Of a DNA stretch of 32,740 bases, positions 23,459 through 31,294 are shown piece by piece. A program made the translations under genes and the position numbers. The stretch is from the sequence record NZ_CP072582.1. The stretch is one strand, 5' to 3'. The first letter of the stretch is position 1; each line of letters starts with the position of its first letter. Origin of the DNA: a plasmid. Under the pieces are notes generated by a model. It worked only from the letters and a program-made list of their open reading frames with translations, did not search any database and was not told where the DNA came from.

Positions 23459-24267
23459 GGTTCTGTTGCAAAGTTTTAAATAAAGAATAAAATCCCTTAC
23501 GGTATCTATGATTTAAGCTGGGATTCCCAATAATACCTTGATTTCAGTACAGACCGAAAACCCGAAGAGAGTGCCTTCTTTTCGGGTTTTCTTATATAAT
23601 CCTCGAATGGCTTCCATGCCTTTAATCGTGGTAGAGGCAGTGCGTAAACTTCGATAGAATTTATTGCGTCTCTTTACTGGACGATGGTCTTGTTCAATCA
23701 AATTATTCAGGTATTTAATGGTACGATGTTCTGTCCCTTGATAAAAGCCGTATTCTTTTAGTTTCTTAAAGGCACTTGTAATAGAGGGGGCTTTATCTGT
23801 GACTACAACCTTCGGTTCATCAAACTGCTTCACTAACCGCTTAAGAAAAGCATAGGCTGCTTGTGTGTCCCGTTTTTTACGTAACCAAATATCCAAGGTT
23901 AAACCATCTGCATCGATGGCTCGATACAAATAATGCCATTTTCCTTTAATTTTGATGTACGTTTCATCCATTTTCCATGAATAAAAGGATTTTTTATTTT
24001 TCTTTTTCCAAATTTGATAGAGTAGTTTGCCATATTCTTGCACCCAACGATAAATCGTCGTATGAGAAACGTTAATGCCACGATCATATAAGATTTCTTG
24101 AACTTCACGATAGCTAAGGTTATAACGAAGATAGTAGCCCACGGCTACAATAATCACATCCTGCTGAAATTGCTTTCCTTTAAAATGATTCATCGTCATT
24201 CCTCCTGCTATCTTTTTCTATTATTCTACCTTATTTGATAGTAGATTTAAAACTTTGCAACAGAACC
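23459..24267 (-). mobile_element. IS1216-type insertion sequence, copy 3, 809 bp
   Basis: Terminal IRs. Transposase identical to copy 1. Confidence 0.95.
23513..24199 (-). CDS. tnp: IS6-family (IS1216) transposase, 228 aa
   Basis: Identical to the copy 1 protein. Confidence 0.95.
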   Translation of the reverse strand: MTMNHFKGKQFQQDVIIVAVGYYLRYNLSYREVQEILYDRGINVSHTTIYRWVQEYGKLLYQIWKKKNKKSFYSWKMDETYIKIKGKWHYLYRAIDADGLTLDIWLRKKRDTQAAYAFLKRLVKQFDEPKVVVTDKAPSITSAFKKLKEYGFYQGTEHRTIKYLNNLIEQDHRPVKRRNKFYRSLRTASTTIKGMEAIRGLYKKTRKEGTLFGFSVCTEIKVLLGIPA

Positions 24268-24288
24268 CTTCTTTCTAACTGGAACATA

Positions 24289-24912
24289 TTACATTCCTAA
24301 ATCTCTTTTTACTCGATAAACGGTTTTTCTTGTAACTCCTGCGTTCTTTGCTATTTTAGAAATAGTTTCTTTTTTCTTCAGACCATCAACAATTTCATCG
24401 TAAATCAATTTGTTTTTTCCTGTTGCATTGGCATGGTATTGAATCTTTTTACCAGTATAACGACCATTTTTCTTTGCAATTTCAATGCCTTGTTTTTGAC
24501 GCTCTTTGATTTTTTTCCGTTCGTTTTCAGCAACATAGCTAAACACTTCTATGACTAAATTTGTTAGCAAGTCTCTTAATGCAGGGTCAGTTACCCCATT
24601 AAACGACGGTAGGTCTAATATTTCAATAGAAGCACCTTTACTACGAAACAATTGAAGTAAGTCTTTTGTATCTTTACTATTTCTTGCTAATCGATCAAGA
24701 CTAGGAATAATAATCGTATCTCGTTCACGTATGAAAGAAATAAGCTCTTGCAGCTCTGGTCTGTTTTCAATATTTTTTCCAGAGACTTTTTCCTCGAAAA
24801 TTTTTAAATCGTCTTCAGCAATATTATTTTTGACTGACCAATTTTCAATTAGCTTATGTTGCCGAGCTAAACTTTGATCGTCGGAAGAAACTCTTAAATA
24901 AGCTAAATACAT
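24289..24912 (-). CDS. Serine recombinase (resolvase), 207 aa
   Basis: YLRVSSDDQ catalytic motif and C-terminal HTH. A probable res region lies upstream (24913..25150), with GGGTACAC / GTATACCC-type inverted motifs. Confidence 0.8.
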   Translation of the reverse strand: MYLAYLRVSSDDQSLARQHKLIENWSVKNNIAEDDLKIFEEKVSGKNIENRPELQELISFIRERDTIIIPSLDRLARNSKDTKDLLQLFRSKGASIEILDLPSFNGVTDPALRDLLTNLVIEVFSYVAENERKKIKERQKQGIEIAKKNGRYTGKKIQYHANATGKNKLIYDEIVDGLKKKETISKIAKNAGVTRKTVYRVKRDLGM

Positions 24913-25151
24913 TTGCCATCATTCCTATCCAATCTATTTACTATTAGTATACAGGTCTTAGGGTACACTTTGCAATAAAGAAAAACCGCTGAAAAATCAA
25001 CGCTTTAAGCAAATATGGATTTGTACCATTAGAGTATACCCAAAAGAAACAACAAATAAACTGTAGATAGCGGGTTCAAGTTGTAGTCGTTGCTGGCTAC
25101 ATCACCTCCTTTAAGTATTTCTTAGGTAACAGAAATGTGAACACAAAAATA

Positions 25152-25190
25152 AGGACATTAGTTTATTTTAAAACTAACATCCTTAATATC
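25152..25190 (-). terminator. Native rho-independent terminator of the AT-rich operon, now separated from it by the ISL3 insertion
   Basis: Imperfect 13-bp stem AGGACATTAGTTT/AAACTAACATCCT followed on the minus strand by CCUUAUUUUUGUGUU. It lies just past the reconstructed original stop of the 172-aa gene. Confidence 0.5.
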
Positions 25191-25201
25191 TTAATTTATC
25201 C

Positions 25202-26700
25202 GGCTCTATACTTTTTGATGTTGGTGGATGACACCAGCATCTTTTTTATTTTCCAAAACATATAGAAAAGACACCTTGAAATCCTTTAGAATTAATTTGG
25301 CGAACCAACCCAAAAGGAGGAATCAAGATGTCTTACACTCACCTTATCAAAGAAACATTAGATATTCTAGACTTATCAGTTACTTTTAACGAAAATTGTC
25401 TCACAAAAGAAAAATACAAAGGGCAAATCTGTCATATTTATCGTGGAAACTTGATTTATACAGCCCAAGAATGCATCCACTGTAAACACCAGATTGCTTC
25501 AGATATTGTGCGTTGGGGTACAACAACCGTCCGGTTGTTAATGAACGATGTTTCTGAATACCGTACCTACCTCGAATTGAAAAAGCAACGCTTCAAATGC
25601 AAAGCTTGTCAGCGGACCTTTGTCGCAGATACTTCTGTTGCGAAAAAACATTGTTTCATCAGTGAGAAAGTCCGCTGGTCTGTCGTGACTCGTCTGAAAA
25701 AAAATACCTCAATGACAGAGATCGCCGCTCAGAAAAATCTATCGGTCTCTTCTGTTTACCGTATTATGAAGCGATTTTATCGTCCGTTGAATCCTTTTCG
25801 GACACCGTTACCTAAGGTACTTTGTTTTGATGAATTCAAATCAGTTCGGGGTGTTTCAGGTGCTATGAGTTTCATCATGATGGATGGACAAACACAGCGC
25901 TTATTGGACATTGTCGAGAACCGACAACTGCCTTTTTTAAAACGTTATTTTAGTCATTTTTCACGAGAAATTCGTGAAGCGGTCGAATGGATCGTGATTG
26001 ATATGTACGCTCCTTATGTATCGCTCGTTAAAAAGCTGTTTCCAAAAGCACAGCTGATTATTGACCGGTTTCACATCGTCCAACATATTGGTCGTACCTT
26101 TCGCAATCATCGAATCAAAGAAACGAACCAACTATTAAAAAGCAAAGAACAAAAACACTATCAATTAGGTAAGCAATTAAAAAGATACTGGAAACTTCTT
26201 CAAAAAGATGAACGCAAGCTTGATTATACTCGACGCCTTTGGCGACCTGGCTTCAAAGCTCATTTAACAGAGACCGATATTGTGGATCGCTTACTGAAAG
26301 GGAGCCCTGCTTTGCGTGTAGGCTATCAGTTATATCAAGACTTTCTTTACGCTGTAAAGGAACGAGACTACGTATCGTTTGAAGAACTACTTACCAATAA
26401 TATCATGCTTCCCGAAGGCTATCAGACGACCTTGAGAACGTTCCAGAAATTTCTGCCACAAATCAAAAATGCTTTACAACAAAGTTATTCAAATGGCCCA
26501 CTTGAATGTCTGAACAACCATATCAAAGTGTTAAAACGAAATGCATATGGCTTTCGTAGCTTTTATAATTTCAAATTGCGCATCATGATTCGTCATGGCA
26601 ACGCATTGATTTTCAACTAAAAAAGATCAAGAGGAACTGATCCACTTGATCTCCAATTATTCTAAGATTTCTCTTTACCAACATCATTTGACAAAGAGCC
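25202..26700 (+). mobile_element. ISL3-family insertion sequence (second, distinct element), 1499 bp
   Basis: IRs GGCTCTATACTTTTTGATGTTGG… and …CCAACATCATTTGACAAAGAGCC. Perfect 8-bp TSD ATTTATCC at 25194..25201 and 26701..26708. Confidence 0.85.
25328..26620 (+). CDS. ISL3 family transposase, 430 aa
   Basis: Zinc-finger-like N-terminus (CIHCKH…CKACQRTF). ISL3-type length and IRs. Confidence 0.85.
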   Translation: MSYTHLIKETLDILDLSVTFNENCLTKEKYKGQICHIYRGNLIYTAQECIHCKHQIASDIVRWGTTTVRLLMNDVSEYRTYLELKKQRFKCKACQRTFVADTSVAKKHCFISEKVRWSVVTRLKKNTSMTEIAAQKNLSVSSVYRIMKRFYRPLNPFRTPLPKVLCFDEFKSVRGVSGAMSFIMMDGQTQRLLDIVENRQLPFLKRYFSHFSREIREAVEWIVIDMYAPYVSLVKKLFPKAQLIIDRFHIVQHIGRTFRNHRIKETNQLLKSKEQKHYQLGKQLKRYWKLLQKDERKLDYTRRLWRPGFKAHLTETDIVDRLLKGSPALRVGYQLYQDFLYAVKERDYVSFEELLTNNIMLPEGYQTTLRTFQKFLPQIKNALQQSYSNGPLECLNNHIKVLKRNAYGFRSFYNFKLRIMIRHGNALIFN

Positions 26701-27202
26701 ATTTATCCATATTTTGAGAAATAATACTTTTCCATTCAGAAACTAATTTAGTAAGGAATCTTGCAATGTTTTGTCTCATTAATTCATTATTTCTATTATC
26801 TATAAGATCTGTTAGATATTTTTCAAATTCTAAAAAGCTATCCGAATTTTCTTCGACGATTAAATACTTAAGAGAATTTATATCGGAAAAGATAGATTCA
26901 AGTTTACTAATCTCATTTTCTAAATCTATATTTTCACGTGTGATTATCTCATCACTTTTTCTTAAAAAGCTAAAAATTGCATCAGTTGCTTTACACTTTT
27001 CCATTAAAGAAGTATATTCTTCAATTTTTCTTCTTTCTTTATGGTCATTTTTTAAATCAGTTTCAATGTCTTTTTTCATTTGTTCTATACTGAGTTTGTT
27101 CTTTTTGTTCTTTTGAGTAAATCTAAAATTCAAACACGAAAAAAGTATGTTAGCAATAACACCTATAATAGCAAATAAATCATTTATACTATTTAATTTC
27201 AT
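26684..27202 (-). CDS. Hypothetical membrane-anchored coiled-coil protein, 172 aa (one N-terminal TM helix, then a charged helical domain). Second gene of the AT-rich operon. The last 5 codons are supplied by the ISL3 end.
   Basis: TM LFAIIGVIANILFSCLNF followed by a highly charged region. The reconstructed native C-terminus is …SQNMDKLRY*. Confidence 0.6.
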   Translation of the reverse strand: MKLNSINDLFAIIGVIANILFSCLNFRFTQKNKKNKLSIEQMKKDIETDLKNDHKERRKIEEYTSLMEKCKATDAIFSFLRKSDEIITRENIDLENEISKLESIFSDINSLKYLIVEENSDSFLEFEKYLTDLIDNRNNELMRQNIARFLTKLVSEWKSIISQNMDKWLFVK

Positions 27203-27208
27203 TTATCA

Positions 27209-27727
27209 TCACAAACTTAGAACTTTACTTATCATCTCATAAGACAAGTTTCCAAATTGATAATTATTGGTAGATTTTAAATCATTATAATTTTCGAGAA
27301 ATTTTATATAAGTACCTCTCATCGGTTTATGGCTATTAAAAGTGTTAAAATCACTATCTTCAACTATTTCTTGAAACCTATTTAATTTTTCAATAAAAAA
27401 TTGTGCATAAAGTGCTAACTTAAATTCGGTAGAGCTATTAAAGTCAAAACCTTTAAATTGTATATAATAATTATCAATTGAATTTATATCTTTTAATTTA
27501 TTTTTACTAAAAGTAATATCTCTATACATATTTAATATGTCTAGAACAAACCGCGAATCTTCTTCTGGCAATGGATCAGAAATATTTTCAAATATTTCAC
27601 TATAGTGATATTCGTAACCTTCTGTTAGTATTTCTATTTTTTCAGCATAGTATTTTTCTTCGTTAGGATTTAAAGCTTTTAAAATTTCAAACTGATTTAT
27701 TAATGTTAATCTATTAAATTTATCCAT
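27209..27727 (-). CDS. YfbU-family (UPF0304, PF03887-like) protein, 172 aa. First gene of the AT-rich operon.
   Basis: Block-wise similarity to E. coli YfbU, recalled from memory: RLTLINQFEILKALNPNEEKYYAEKIEILTEGY vs [33 protein letters not shown]; FKGFD vs FLGFD; SHKPM vs AQTPM; C-terminal LSxxEIxxxL. GGAGGA RBS 7 nt upstream and a TATAAT -10. Confidence 0.65.
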   Translation of the reverse strand: MDKFNRLTLINQFEILKALNPNEEKYYAEKIEILTEGYEYHYSEIFENISDPLPEEDSRFVLDILNMYRDITFSKNKLKDINSIDNYYIQFKGFDFNSSTEFKLALYAQFFIEKLNRFQEIVEDSDFNTFNSHKPMRGTYIKFLENYNDLKSTNNYQFGNLSYEMISKVLSL

Positions 27728-27796
27728 ATTTTATCCTCCATGATTTATTTACTTTCATTATATAAAAGAATGAGATATAATATAAATGAAAGGGCA

Positions 27797-27816
27797 TGCT
27801 GTCACATGCCCAGTGT
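27797..27816 (-). terminator. Hairpin GGGCATG-CTGTCA-CATGCCC followed on the minus strand by a U-rich tract. It insulates the small-peptide gene from the YfbU operon promoter.
   Basis: Direct reading. Confidence 0.5.
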
Positions 27817-27856: not shown

Positions 27857-27900
27857 GCTCGTCTACCTCGCCAAAAGTTGAGACGGCTCTATTTTTTTTG
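27857..27900 (+). terminator. Hairpin GAGCTCGTCT…AGACGGCTC followed by T8 (plus strand). It is bidirectional-looking and overlaps the 3' end of the 70-aa ORF.
   Basis: Direct reading. There is no obvious plus-strand gene upstream. Confidence 0.5.
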
Positions 27901-28101
27901 TTCTTTTTTGAACTTTAACCAAGCTAAAATCGAATCGCTAGCTTTCGCTACGGCAGTAATAACTACTGCTGCTGCTCCGATAATAGCAATGATTTGATCC
28001 AATGAGAACAAATCAGGCATTTCCTTTCTACAGAGTACGTCCGATAAGCTAATAAGCCCATAGGCACCACGCTCCTTCAATTGGATTTGCCAAACCGCCA
28101 C
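27889..28101 (-). CDS. Hypothetical small membrane protein, 70 aa (GTG start; C-terminal TM IIAIIGAAAVVITAVAKA plus Lys-rich tail)
   Basis: ORF with an extended -10 promoter TGATATAAT about 25 nt upstream (28133..28141) and a weak RBS. Confidence 0.4.
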   Translation of the reverse strand: MAVWQIQLKERGAYGLISLSDVLCRKEMPDLFSLDQIIAIIGAAAVVITAVAKASDSILAWLKFKKEQKK

Positions 28102-28258: not shown

Positions 28259-29067
28259 GGTTCTGTTGCAAAGTTTTAAATAAAGAATAAAATCCCTTAC
28301 GGTATCTATGATTTAAGCTGGGATTCCCAATAATACCTTGATTTCAGTACAGACCGAAAACCCGAAGAGAGTGCCTTCTTTTCGGGTTTTCTTATATAAT
28401 CCTCGAATGGCTTCCATGCCTTTAATCGTGGTAGAGGCAGTGCGTAAACTTCGATAGAATTTATTGCGTCTCTTTACTGGACGATGGTCTTGTTCAATCA
28501 AATTATTCAGGTATTTAATGGTACGATGTTCTGTCCCTTGATAAAAGCCGTATTCTTTTAGTTTCTTAAAGGCACTTGTAATAGAGGGGGCTTTATCTGT
28601 GACTACAACCTTCGGTTCATCAAACTGCTTCACTAACCGCTTAAGAAAAGCATAGGCTGCTTGTGTGTCCCGTTTTTTACGTAACCAAATATCCAAGGTT
28701 AAACCATCTGCATCGATGGCTCGATACAAATAATGCCATTTTCCTTTAATTTTGATGTACGTTTCATCCATTTTCCATGAATAAAAGGATTTTTTATTTT
28801 TCTTTTTCCAAATTTGATAGAGTAGTTTGCCATATTCTTGCACCCAACGATAAATCGTCGTATGAGAAACGTTAATGCCACGATCATATAAGATTTCTTG
28901 AACTTCACGATAGCTAAGGTTATAACGAAGATAGTAGCCCACGGCTACAATAATCACATCCTGCTGAAATTGCTTTCCTTTAAAATGATTCATCGTCATT
29001 CCTCCTGCTATCTTTTTCTATTATTCTACCTTATTTGATAGTAGATTTAAAACTTTGCAACAGAACC
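28259..29067 (-). mobile_element. IS1216-type insertion sequence, copy 4, 809 bp
   Basis: Terminal IRs. Transposase identical to copy 1. Confidence 0.95.
28313..28999 (-). CDS. tnp: IS6-family (IS1216) transposase, 228 aa
   Basis: Identical to the copy 1 protein. Confidence 0.95.
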   Translation of the reverse strand: MTMNHFKGKQFQQDVIIVAVGYYLRYNLSYREVQEILYDRGINVSHTTIYRWVQEYGKLLYQIWKKKNKKSFYSWKMDETYIKIKGKWHYLYRAIDADGLTLDIWLRKKRDTQAAYAFLKRLVKQFDEPKVVVTDKAPSITSAFKKLKEYGFYQGTEHRTIKYLNNLIEQDHRPVKRRNKFYRSLRTASTTIKGMEAIRGLYKKTRKEGTLFGFSVCTEIKVLLGIPA

Positions 29068-29668: not shown

Positions 29669-30484
29669 ATGAGTTATGCAGTTTGTAGAATGCAAAAAGT
29701 GAAATCAGCTGGACTAAAAGGCATGCAATTTCATAATCAAAGAGAGCGAAAAAGTAGAACGAATGATGATATTGACCATGAGCGAACACGTGAAAATTAT
29801 GATTTGAAAAATGATAAAAATATTGATTACAACGAACGTGTCAAAGAAATTATTGAATCACAAAAAACAGGTACAAGAAAAACGAGGAAAGATGCTGTTC
29901 TTGTAAATGAGTTGCTAGTAACATCTGACCGAGATTTTTTTGAGCAACTGGATCCAGGAGAACAAAAACGATTTTTTGAGGAAAGTTATAAATTATTTTC
30001 CGAACGATATGGCAAGCAAAATATTGCTTATGCAACAGTTCATAATGATGAGCAAACCCCTCACATGCATTTAGGTGTTGTGCCTATGCGTGATGGAAAA
30101 CTGCAAGGAAAAAATGTGTTTAATCGTCAAGAACTGTTATGGCTACAAGATAAATTCCCCGAGCATATGAAAAAACAGGGTTTTGAGTTGAAGCGTGGTG
30201 AACGTGGCTCTGACCGTAAACATATTGAGACAGCTAAATTTAAAAAACAAACTTTGGAAAAAGAGATTGATTTTCTAGAAAAAAATTTAGCAGTTAAAAA
30301 AGATGAATGGACTGCTTATAGCGATAAAGTTAAATCAGATTTAGAAGTACCAGCGAAACGACACATGAAAAGTGTTGAAGTGCCAACGGGTGAAAAGTCC
30401 ATGTTTGGTTTGGGAAAAGAAATAATGAAAACAGAAAAGAAACCAACCAAAAATGTTGTTATATCGGAGCGTGATTATAAAAAC
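29669..30484 (+). pseudogene. mob: MobV-family (Mob/Pre) relaxase, 3'-truncated by IS1216 copy 5 (272 codons retained; start MSYAVCRMQKVK)
   Basis: N-terminal MSYxVxRMQK relaxase motif, HNDEQTPHMHLGVVP histidine triad. The ORF runs into the IS1216 IR (…NWFCCKVLNLLSNKVE). Confidence 0.85.
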
Positions 30485-31294
30485 TGGTTCTGTTGCAAAG
30501 TTTTAAATCTACTATCAAATAAGGTAGAATAATAGAAAAAGATAGCAGGAGGAATGACGATGAATCATTTTAAAGGAAAGCAATTTCAGCAGGATGTGAT
30601 TATTGTAGCCGTGGGCTACTATCTTCGTTATAACCTTAGCTATCGTGAAGTTCAAGAAATCTTATATGATCGTGGCATTAACGTTTCTCATACGACGATT
30701 TATCGTTGGGTGCAAGAATATGGCAAACTACTCTATCAAATTTGGAAAAAGAAAAATAAAAAATCCTTTTATTCATGGAAAATGGATGAAACGTACATCA
30801 AAATTAAAGGAAAATGGCATTATTTGTATCGAGCCATCGATGCAGATGGTTTAACCTTGGATATTTGGTTACGTAAAAAACGGGACACACAAGCAGCCTA
30901 TGCTTTTCTTAAGCGGTTAGTGAAGCAGTTTGATGAACCGAAGGTTGTAGTCACAGATAAAGCCCCCTCTATTACAAGTGCCTTTAAGAAACTAAAAGAA
31001 TACGGCTTTTATCAAGGGACAGAACATCGTACCATTAAATACCTGAATAATTTGATTGAACAAGACCATCGTCCAGTAAAGAGACGCAATAAATTCTATC
31101 GAAGTTTACGCACTGCCTCTACCACGATTAAAGGCATGGAAGCCATTCGAGGATTATATAAGAAAACCCGAAAAGAAGGCACTCTCTTCGGGTTTTCGGT
31201 CTGTACTGAAATCAAGGTATTATTGGGAATCCCAGCTTAAATCATAGATACCGTAAGGGATTTTATTCTTTATTTAAAACTTTGCAACAGAACC
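30485..31294 (+). mobile_element. IS1216-type insertion sequence, copy 5 (810 bp; 1-bp insertion in the 5' UTR relative to copy 1)
   Basis: Terminal IRs. Transposase identical to copy 1. Confidence 0.95.
30554..31240 (+). CDS. tnp: IS6-family (IS1216) transposase, 228 aa
   Basis: Identical to the copy 1 protein. Confidence 0.95.
   Translation: MTMNHFKGKQFQQDVIIVAVGYYLRYNLSYREVQEILYDRGINVSHTTIYRWVQEYGKLLYQIWKKKNKKSFYSWKMDETYIKIKGKWHYLYRAIDADGLTLDIWLRKKRDTQAAYAFLKRLVKQFDEPKVVVTDKAPSITSAFKKLKEYGFYQGTEHRTIKYLNNLIEQDHRPVKRRNKFYRSLRTASTTIKGMEAIRGLYKKTRKEGTLFGFSVCTEIKVLLGIPA

Follow-up and report, generated by a model that had tools for sequence, protein, structure and literature searches.

What is the function of the very AT-rich gene pair on plasmid NZ_CP072582.1, in which a gene for a YfbU-family protein (gene 1) is followed by a gene for a small membrane-anchored protein (gene 2)? 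We addressed this question by computational analysis of a 32,740-nt stretch of the plasmid, hereafter the window. An initial annotation, made from the letters of the window without database searches, had put the pair forward as a candidate defence or abortive infection (Abi) module. On balance, we conclude that the pair is probably a plasmid-borne, horizontally acquired two-gene Abi anti-phage module of the YfbU (Kamadhenu) type. The proposal has gained strength because Kamadhenu is experimentally validated and because homologues of the pair are found in defence islands.

By its sequence, gene 1 is a full-length YfbU-family (UPF0304) protein, as the initial annotation had expected from its similarity to Escherichia coli YfbU. 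It matched Pfam PF03887 with E=1.9e-34 and 119.5 bits (cutoff 25) over residues 1-170 of 172 and profile positions 3-164 of 166, and NCBIfam NF003936 with 104 bits (cutoff 90). A profile built from gene 1 and its homologues retrieved E. coli YfbU (4lr3_A and 1wpb_A) from PDB over the full length with E ~3e-33, a relation to these structures that is a sequence-profile match only. The protein was also assigned to PHROG family phrog_6084, and the exact protein is encoded on at least 1000 contigs.

The two genes and the signals around them are as follows, gene 2 being given in the form found in the window, where its 3' end derives from an insertion sequence (IS) of the ISL3 family.

27209..27727, minus strand: gene 1, YfbU-family protein of 172 aa, WP_000357244.1 (open reading frame (ORF) list and profile matches).
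26684..27202, minus strand: gene 2, 172 aa, N-terminal transmembrane (TM) segment and helical remainder; the native part is 26701..27202, residues 1-167.
26684..26700, minus strand: IS-derived part of gene 2, WLFVK and stop.
27734..27739, minus strand: Shine-Dalgarno sequence GGAGGA, 6 nt before the gene 1 ATG (direct reading).
27757..27786, minus strand: promoter-like site TTTATA-18 nt-TATAAT with 10 of 12 consensus matches (consensus scan and direct reading).
27792..27811, minus strand: terminator-like hairpin, G+C-rich and followed by a T-run, upstream of the operon promoter (scan).

Genes 1 and 2 are co-directional and in the same frame, have 172 codons each and are spaced by 6 nt (TGA TGA TAA ATG). 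They are predicted to be co-transcribed and are probably translationally coupled. The pair has a GC content of 23.6% compared to 35.2% for the window and is its lowest 1-kb stretch, about 4 standard deviations under the mean; only 0.2% of sliding windows were as AT-rich, and all of these overlapped the pair. Our analysis thus reproduced most of the operon as first annotated, namely two tightly linked minus-strand genes 6 nt apart, a TATAAT -10 element and a GGAGGA ribosome binding site upstream of the first gene, a terminator hairpin ahead of the promoter, and a GC content far below that of the surrounding plasmid.

The initial annotation knew of no defence system built on a YfbU-family protein, a statement that the literature contradicts (PMC11381338; PMC12184496). 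Kamadhenu (pUCCL624_130), found on a Lactococcus plasmid by Grafakou et al. 2024, is a 180-aa, YfbU-only, single-gene Abi system that provides more than 4 logs of protection with an Abi phenotype in Lactococcus (PMC11381338). Phages escaping Kamadhenu, described in 2025, carry a change at G22 of a Sak-like single-strand annealing protein, and AbiJ was escaped via the same site (PMC12184496). Kamadhenu does not block phage DNA replication, transcription or translation (PMC13064643). Like gene 1, Kamadhenu is a single-domain PF03887 protein of ~170-180 aa encoded by a plasmid of Lactobacillales, and it is co-localised with other defence genes, as are the relatives of the window pair. In contrast, Kamadhenu is a single gene, whereas gene 1 is coupled to a downstream TM partner and hence differs from it in organisation.

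For sequence comparisons we used as a stand-in for Kamadhenu the 180-codon gene of the sister plasmid pUCCL629C (NZ_PP589679, L060 4257..4798), in which a 1-nt frameshift was corrected by hand. Its product and gene 1 share 29% identity (E 2e-21), below the threshold of >70% identity that the authors of Kamadhenu used for homologues (PMC11381338). The two proteins have the motifs NQ[YF]E, GFDxN and NSH in common, and both [KR]GFDxN and NSH occur in mobile YfbU proteins, including these two. Since gene 1 is 29% identical to the Kamadhenu-like protein, about the distance that separates it from chromosomal E. coli YfbU (30%), the function of Kamadhenu can be transferred to gene 1 at the family level only. 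In the pUCCL629C assembly, the frameshift splits the Kamadhenu-like YfbU gene, and several of its neighbours are also fragmented. The frameshift may therefore be a sequencing error and not the mark of a true pseudogene.

E. coli YfbU (1WPB/4LR3), placed downstream of MazF, belongs to the same Pfam and NCBIfam family as gene 1 and aligns with it over the full length. Its gene was described as a 'death gene' needed for mazEF-dependent killing after DNA damage (PMC2646832), and YfbU proteins are widespread, with some encoded in housekeeping-like chromosomal contexts such as yfbV-yfbU-hxpA. One could thus propose that YfbU serves more generally as a stress or DNA-damage 'death' factor, as in E. 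coli, and that the operon modulates host physiology without being specific to phages. Several differences make this very doubtful. Gene 1 carries GFDxN and NSH, as do mobile YfbU proteins from defence contexts, whereas the corresponding motifs (GFDGN and NSH) are missing from E. coli YfbU. The close relatives of gene 1 reside in defence islands, not in conserved chromosomal operons. In E. coli, yfbV (PF04217) lies upstream of yfbU on the same strand with an 82-nt gap (L019 6101..7133), the opposite order to that of the window pair. Gene 2 is also unrelated to YfbV: we considered gene 2 as a homologue or analogue of YfbV and rejected this, as it has no PF04217 match and as hhalign gave <0.1% probability for both partner profiles described below.

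What, then, is gene 2? As first annotated, it combines a single N-terminal TM helix with a long helical domain: residues ~8-27 form a hydrophobic helix, after which come a KNKKNK stretch and a tail that is helical throughout. Because of the KNKKNK stretch after the TM segment and the positive-inside rule, the ~140-aa helical domain is predicted to face the cytoplasm. Gene 2 has no family in Pfam, NCBIfam, PADLOC or PHROG. A word-index search of 5.8e9 proteins recovered near-identical enterococcal copies only, and an exhaustive HMMER search of 1.84e9 representatives recovered only near-identical fragments and the remote proteins P0042 and P0044 (167-168 aa). A sequence search of PDB returned only coiled-coil noise. 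The idea that gene 2 is a truncated piece of a larger protein was rejected given that its homologues have 167-171 aa.

The pair is conserved in other genomes, both in diverged enterococcal pairs and in 11 distant genomes that carry an analogous partner. The identical pair is present on well over 100 Enterococcus plasmids. Three diverged YfbU proteins (P0012, P0014 and P0018) from E. faecium, E. hirae and metagenomes are 53-57% identical to gene 1, and each has a 167-171-aa partner of gene 2-like architecture encoded 0-6 nt downstream. These partners are ~30% identical to gene 2 and collinear with it over the full length (phmmer 1e-6 to 3e-15). Furthermore, a survey in which one genome per species was scanned yielded 39 YfbU loci, 10 of which have an ORF of 159-177 aa with an N-terminal hydrophobic segment that starts -4 to +9 nt from the YfbU stop. 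In another species-representative locus, the TM-partner ORF lies upstream of YfbU, which brings the total to 11 genomes from other phyla, with Pseudomonas, Psychrobacter, Halieaceae, Phycisphaeraceae and Desulfobacteraceae among the taxa. The YfbU proteins of the distant, undescribed loci with a TM partner (L021-L032, L052, L056 and L057) are 37-48% identical to gene 1. These distant pairs resemble the window pair in gene order, stop/start adjacency, partner size, and the combination of an N-terminal hydrophobic segment with a helical tail.

The Gram-negative-type partners are clearly homologous among themselves. When the profiles of the enterococcal-type and Gram-negative-type partners were aligned, hhalign gave a probability of 55% and an E value of 1.2e-4, and the two groups were reciprocal best non-self matches among 1821 ORFs (E 0.008 and 0.003). 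Based on these sequence comparisons, a common ancestry of the two partner types is likely. In a rough neighbour-joining tree, YfbU clades follow partner type.

A truncated second YfbU paralogue (P0028, 107 aa), ~61% identical over residues 1-91 only, was also observed on E. faecium megaplasmids of 150-295 kb (hits H63-H80). In addition, a YfbU-family gene is carried by the small extrachromosomal element of Methanocaldococcus jannaschii (NC_001733.1, H121), and its presence on this archaeal plasmid extends the YfbU family beyond bacteria.

Is the partner needed? Both Kamadhenu, which works alone, and one enterococcal clade are without a partner; YfbU can therefore probably act alone, and the partner is probably accessory and not obligatory. 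Taken further, gene 1 alone would be a functional Kamadhenu-like defence gene, with gene 2 a dispensable passenger or minor modulator. In favor of this, besides the single-gene nature of Kamadhenu, the Kamadhenu-like gene of pUCCL629C has no partner gene, nor do the copies in prophages and viral contigs or the enterococcal clade P0020, in which a hairpin directly follows the stop codon of a solo YfbU gene. Gene 2 also diverges much faster than YfbU (~30% vs 57% identity), and its 3' end is altered by an IS in the window. Conversely, stop and start are adjacent or overlapping at every pair locus, partner size and architecture are kept across clades whose YfbU proteins share 53-57% identity, and an analogous partner occurs in the 11 distant genomes. 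Moreover, 148 of 160 plasmid records have an intact native gene 2 with 100% identity. That gene 2 is a mere passenger is thus fairly unlikely, and we retain the two-gene module with gene 1 as, probably, its core or sensor component.

The neighbours of YfbU genes in other genomes provide the second line of evidence for a defence role. An FRG-domain gene (PDC-S15) lies 7-14 nt upstream of YfbU or overlaps it by 4 nt at six loci (L028, L033-L036 and L042); FRG is a putative NADase effector of prokaryotic immunity from the ART superfamily (PMC9503650). At one locus each, Abi_alpha (PDC-S47) lies 20 nt downstream of YfbU (L048 5525..6388) and a gene for an AbiJ-like protein lies 1 nt downstream (L058 981..1889). 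The diverged enterococcal pairs have validated defence systems as neighbours: one pair is preceded by the Dodola genes DolA/DolB (L017 2005..3960), which end 40 nt upstream, and another has an SpbK-like TIR gene and Dodola 1.7 kb downstream (L006 6748..8528). Other diverged enterococcal pairs are accompanied by an AbiC/AbiP-like gene (L004 and L005) or by FRG genes (L011 to L013), and restriction-modification genes also surround some of the diverged pairs. The window has no FRG, Abi_alpha or AbiJ genes, and gene 2 matches none of these in Pfam or PADLOC. YfbU genes are also carried by phages: Lactococcus garvieae prophage PLg-TB25 has a solo YfbU gene of phrog_6084 two genes past the endolysin gene and before parA, and solo copies were found on six viral contigs. 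A DNA search of a phage collection with the locus itself returned IS-end fragments only. That unrelated bacteria have FRG, Abi_alpha or AbiJ-like genes so close to YfbU suggests that YfbU is a reusable module paired with different effectors.

These associations also bear on a further explanation, namely that the pair is a toxin-antitoxin (TA)-like plasmid addiction or stability module in which gene 2 is the toxin and YfbU its neutraliser, kept by the killing of plasmid-free segregants. The layout is compatible with such a module, as two small, translationally coupled genes encode a soluble protein first and a membrane protein second. The pair furthermore adjoins resolvase or small integrase genes on plasmids and is very widespread among enterococcal plasmids. 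However, YfbU has no recognisable antitoxin DNA-binding domain in the Pfam scan, and searches of Pfam, PADLOC and NCBIfam detected no toxin or antitoxin family in either gene, so that, despite its coupling, the pair does not qualify as a type II TA system. A pure antitoxin role is also inconsistent with the many solo YfbU genes, one of which confers Abi, and in other genomes YfbU has FRG, Abi_alpha or AbiJ-like genes as its partners, arranged in a different order. Finally, insertions of IS elements and transposons are tolerated in either gene, including yfbU, whose loss should unleash the toxin. We therefore regard an addiction module as quite unlikely.

How would a Kamadhenu-type two-gene module act? 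The soluble YfbU protein would be the core component that responds to infection and, by analogy with Kamadhenu, it could be triggered by a single-strand annealing protein of the phage or by the recombination intermediates that this protein makes. The membrane partner would be a clade-specific effector, amplifier or anchor, in a logic that may resemble that of RexA/RexB. In phage lambda, RexA is a soluble sensor of phage DNA-protein or recombination intermediates and RexB a membrane protein, and their action results in membrane depolarisation and Abi. The partner of YfbU would likewise act at the membrane, by damaging or depolarising it or by holding YfbU there, such that the infected cell no longer supports phage growth. 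The analogy with Rex is purely inferential: there is no kinship in sequence or fold, and RexB is a polytopic channel while gene 2 is predicted to be single-pass.

More broadly, we tentatively raise the possibility that YfbU is a widespread phage-sensing core with interchangeable effectors (the single-pass membrane protein of this operon and of the 11 distant genomes, the FRG/ART-type enzyme, Abi_alpha or the AbiJ-like HEPN protein). Solo Kamadhenu would then be the minimal form, and the enterococcal pair an undescribed two-component defence system. The link between the YfbU family and phage defence is already known, and thousands of records contain annotated copies of exactly these genes. What appears to be new, as far as the literature could be searched, is the two-gene form together with the modular association of YfbU with different effector-like genes.

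Several observations weigh against a two-gene defence module. Kamadhenu is a single-gene system, so the putative role of gene 2 follows from linkage only. Gene 1 is about as far from the Kamadhenu-like protein as from E. coli YfbU, whose own context is conserved, chromosomal and housekeeping-like. Neither gene was recognised by PADLOC-DB 2.0, in which gene 1 had no match and gene 2 only a spurious match of 12 bits. This empty result is explained by the absence of Kamadhenu from PADLOC and DefenseFinder (PMC13335696). The AlphaFold2 model of gene 2, built without Met1 with no effect on the conclusions, is all-helical and of low confidence (pLDDT 64), and its Foldseek comparison with PDB was uninformative, giving only generic helical bundles with E>0.2. 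The similarity between enterococcal-type and Gram-negative-type partners is marginal (hidden Markov model E ~0.003-0.5). Lastly, the locus tolerates insertions of IS elements and transposons in clinical lineages. Taking these points into account, we consider the defence interpretation reasonable and the enterococcal pair a candidate defence system.

Mobile elements surround the pair and interrupt it, as listed here.

23459..24278, minus strand: IS1216 copy, direct repeat of 28259..29067 (repeat search and ORF list).
24289..24912, minus strand: serine recombinase/resolvase gene (ORF), annotated as 'recombinase family protein' in L001 and L002.
25150..25185, minus strand: native terminator hairpin of gene 2, now 1.5 kb from gene 2 (scan).
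25183..25193, minus strand: gene 2 codons L-R-Y and stop, the native 3' end, now displaced (junction alignment).
25202..26700, plus strand: ISL3-family element with its transposase at 25328..26620, inserted in gene 2 codon 168.
28259..29067, minus strand: IS1216 copy, direct repeat of 23459..24278 (repeat search).

The boundaries of the ISL3-family element were defined by aligning the window with the uninterrupted plasmid L002 (NZ_CP025427) and with L001, which bears ISEfa11. Reading both junctions revealed an 8-bp target duplication, GGATAAAT, with copies at 25194..25201 and 26701..26708. The insertion swaps the last three native codons of gene 2 for five IS-derived codons and a stop, so that the native C-terminus ...NMDKLRY* (170 aa, WP_000774078.1) becomes ...NMDKWLFVK* (172 aa) in the window. 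The fused allele, WP_194849699.1, is a minority form found on 64 contigs, compared to at least 1000 contigs for the native allele. It may still work because the residues replaced by the insertion are unconserved across homologues. The initial annotation overlooked that the ISL3-family element lies inside gene 2 and alters its C-terminus; it was right that the element displaced the native terminator, as the hairpin corresponding to 25185..25150 comes directly after the gene 2 stop in uninterrupted plasmids. Hence, in the window, gene 2 has a C-terminus changed by the IS and no longer has its terminator, while the core YfbU gene is intact.

Two independent insertions of ISL3-family elements lie no more than ~35 bp apart at the AT-rich 3' end and terminator of gene 2, the second being ISEfa11 (L001 7886..8000; NZ_CP027519), inserted 32 nt beyond the gene 2 stop. 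Other plasmids carry IS30 or Tn1549 within or close to the pair. The 3' end and terminator of gene 2 thus look like an insertion hot spot.

Natively, the serine recombinase/resolvase gene lies directly downstream of the pair. The repeat search agrees with the initial placement of the pair near a resolvase and between directly oriented IS1216 copies, which enclose the serine recombinase gene, the ISL3-family element, gene 2, the YfbU gene and a 70-codon ORF; a third, inverted IS1216 copy is present at 30475..31294. Such surroundings raise the question of whether the pair is merely non-functional cargo hitch-hiking on IS1216-mediated plasmid mosaics. Consistent with this, the pair is 100% identical over hundreds of plasmids, which points to recent spread and not to long selection, and IS insertions are frequent in and around it. 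Yet both ORFs are intact across diverged homologues at 30-57% identity, and translational coupling and regulatory signals are kept, which makes inert cargo highly improbable.

The 70-codon ORF (27889..28101, minus strand, WP_002349227.1) encodes a TM helix and accompanies the pair on enterococcal plasmids and in E. raffinosus (L020). We considered it as a third component and rejected it, given that the terminator-like hairpin at 27792..27811 separates it from the operon and that it is absent from diverged pairs.

The exact pair is carried by very many plasmids of clinical E. faecium and E. faecalis, in many cases beside resistance genes. Should the pair be active, it could restrict the use of phage therapy and spread together with resistance determinants. 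A two-component system of this kind, if true, would occur on more than 1000 Enterococcus contigs, plasmids of hospital E. faecium among them, and would matter for the treatment of vancomycin-resistant enterococci with phages. For the family as a whole, the membrane partner, together with the recurrent close association with FRG, Abi_alpha or AbiJ-like genes and with Dodola/SpbK islands, would provide a handle on the mechanism of Kamadhenu and YfbU, and the pair could help explain the 'death' gene behaviour of E. coli YfbU.

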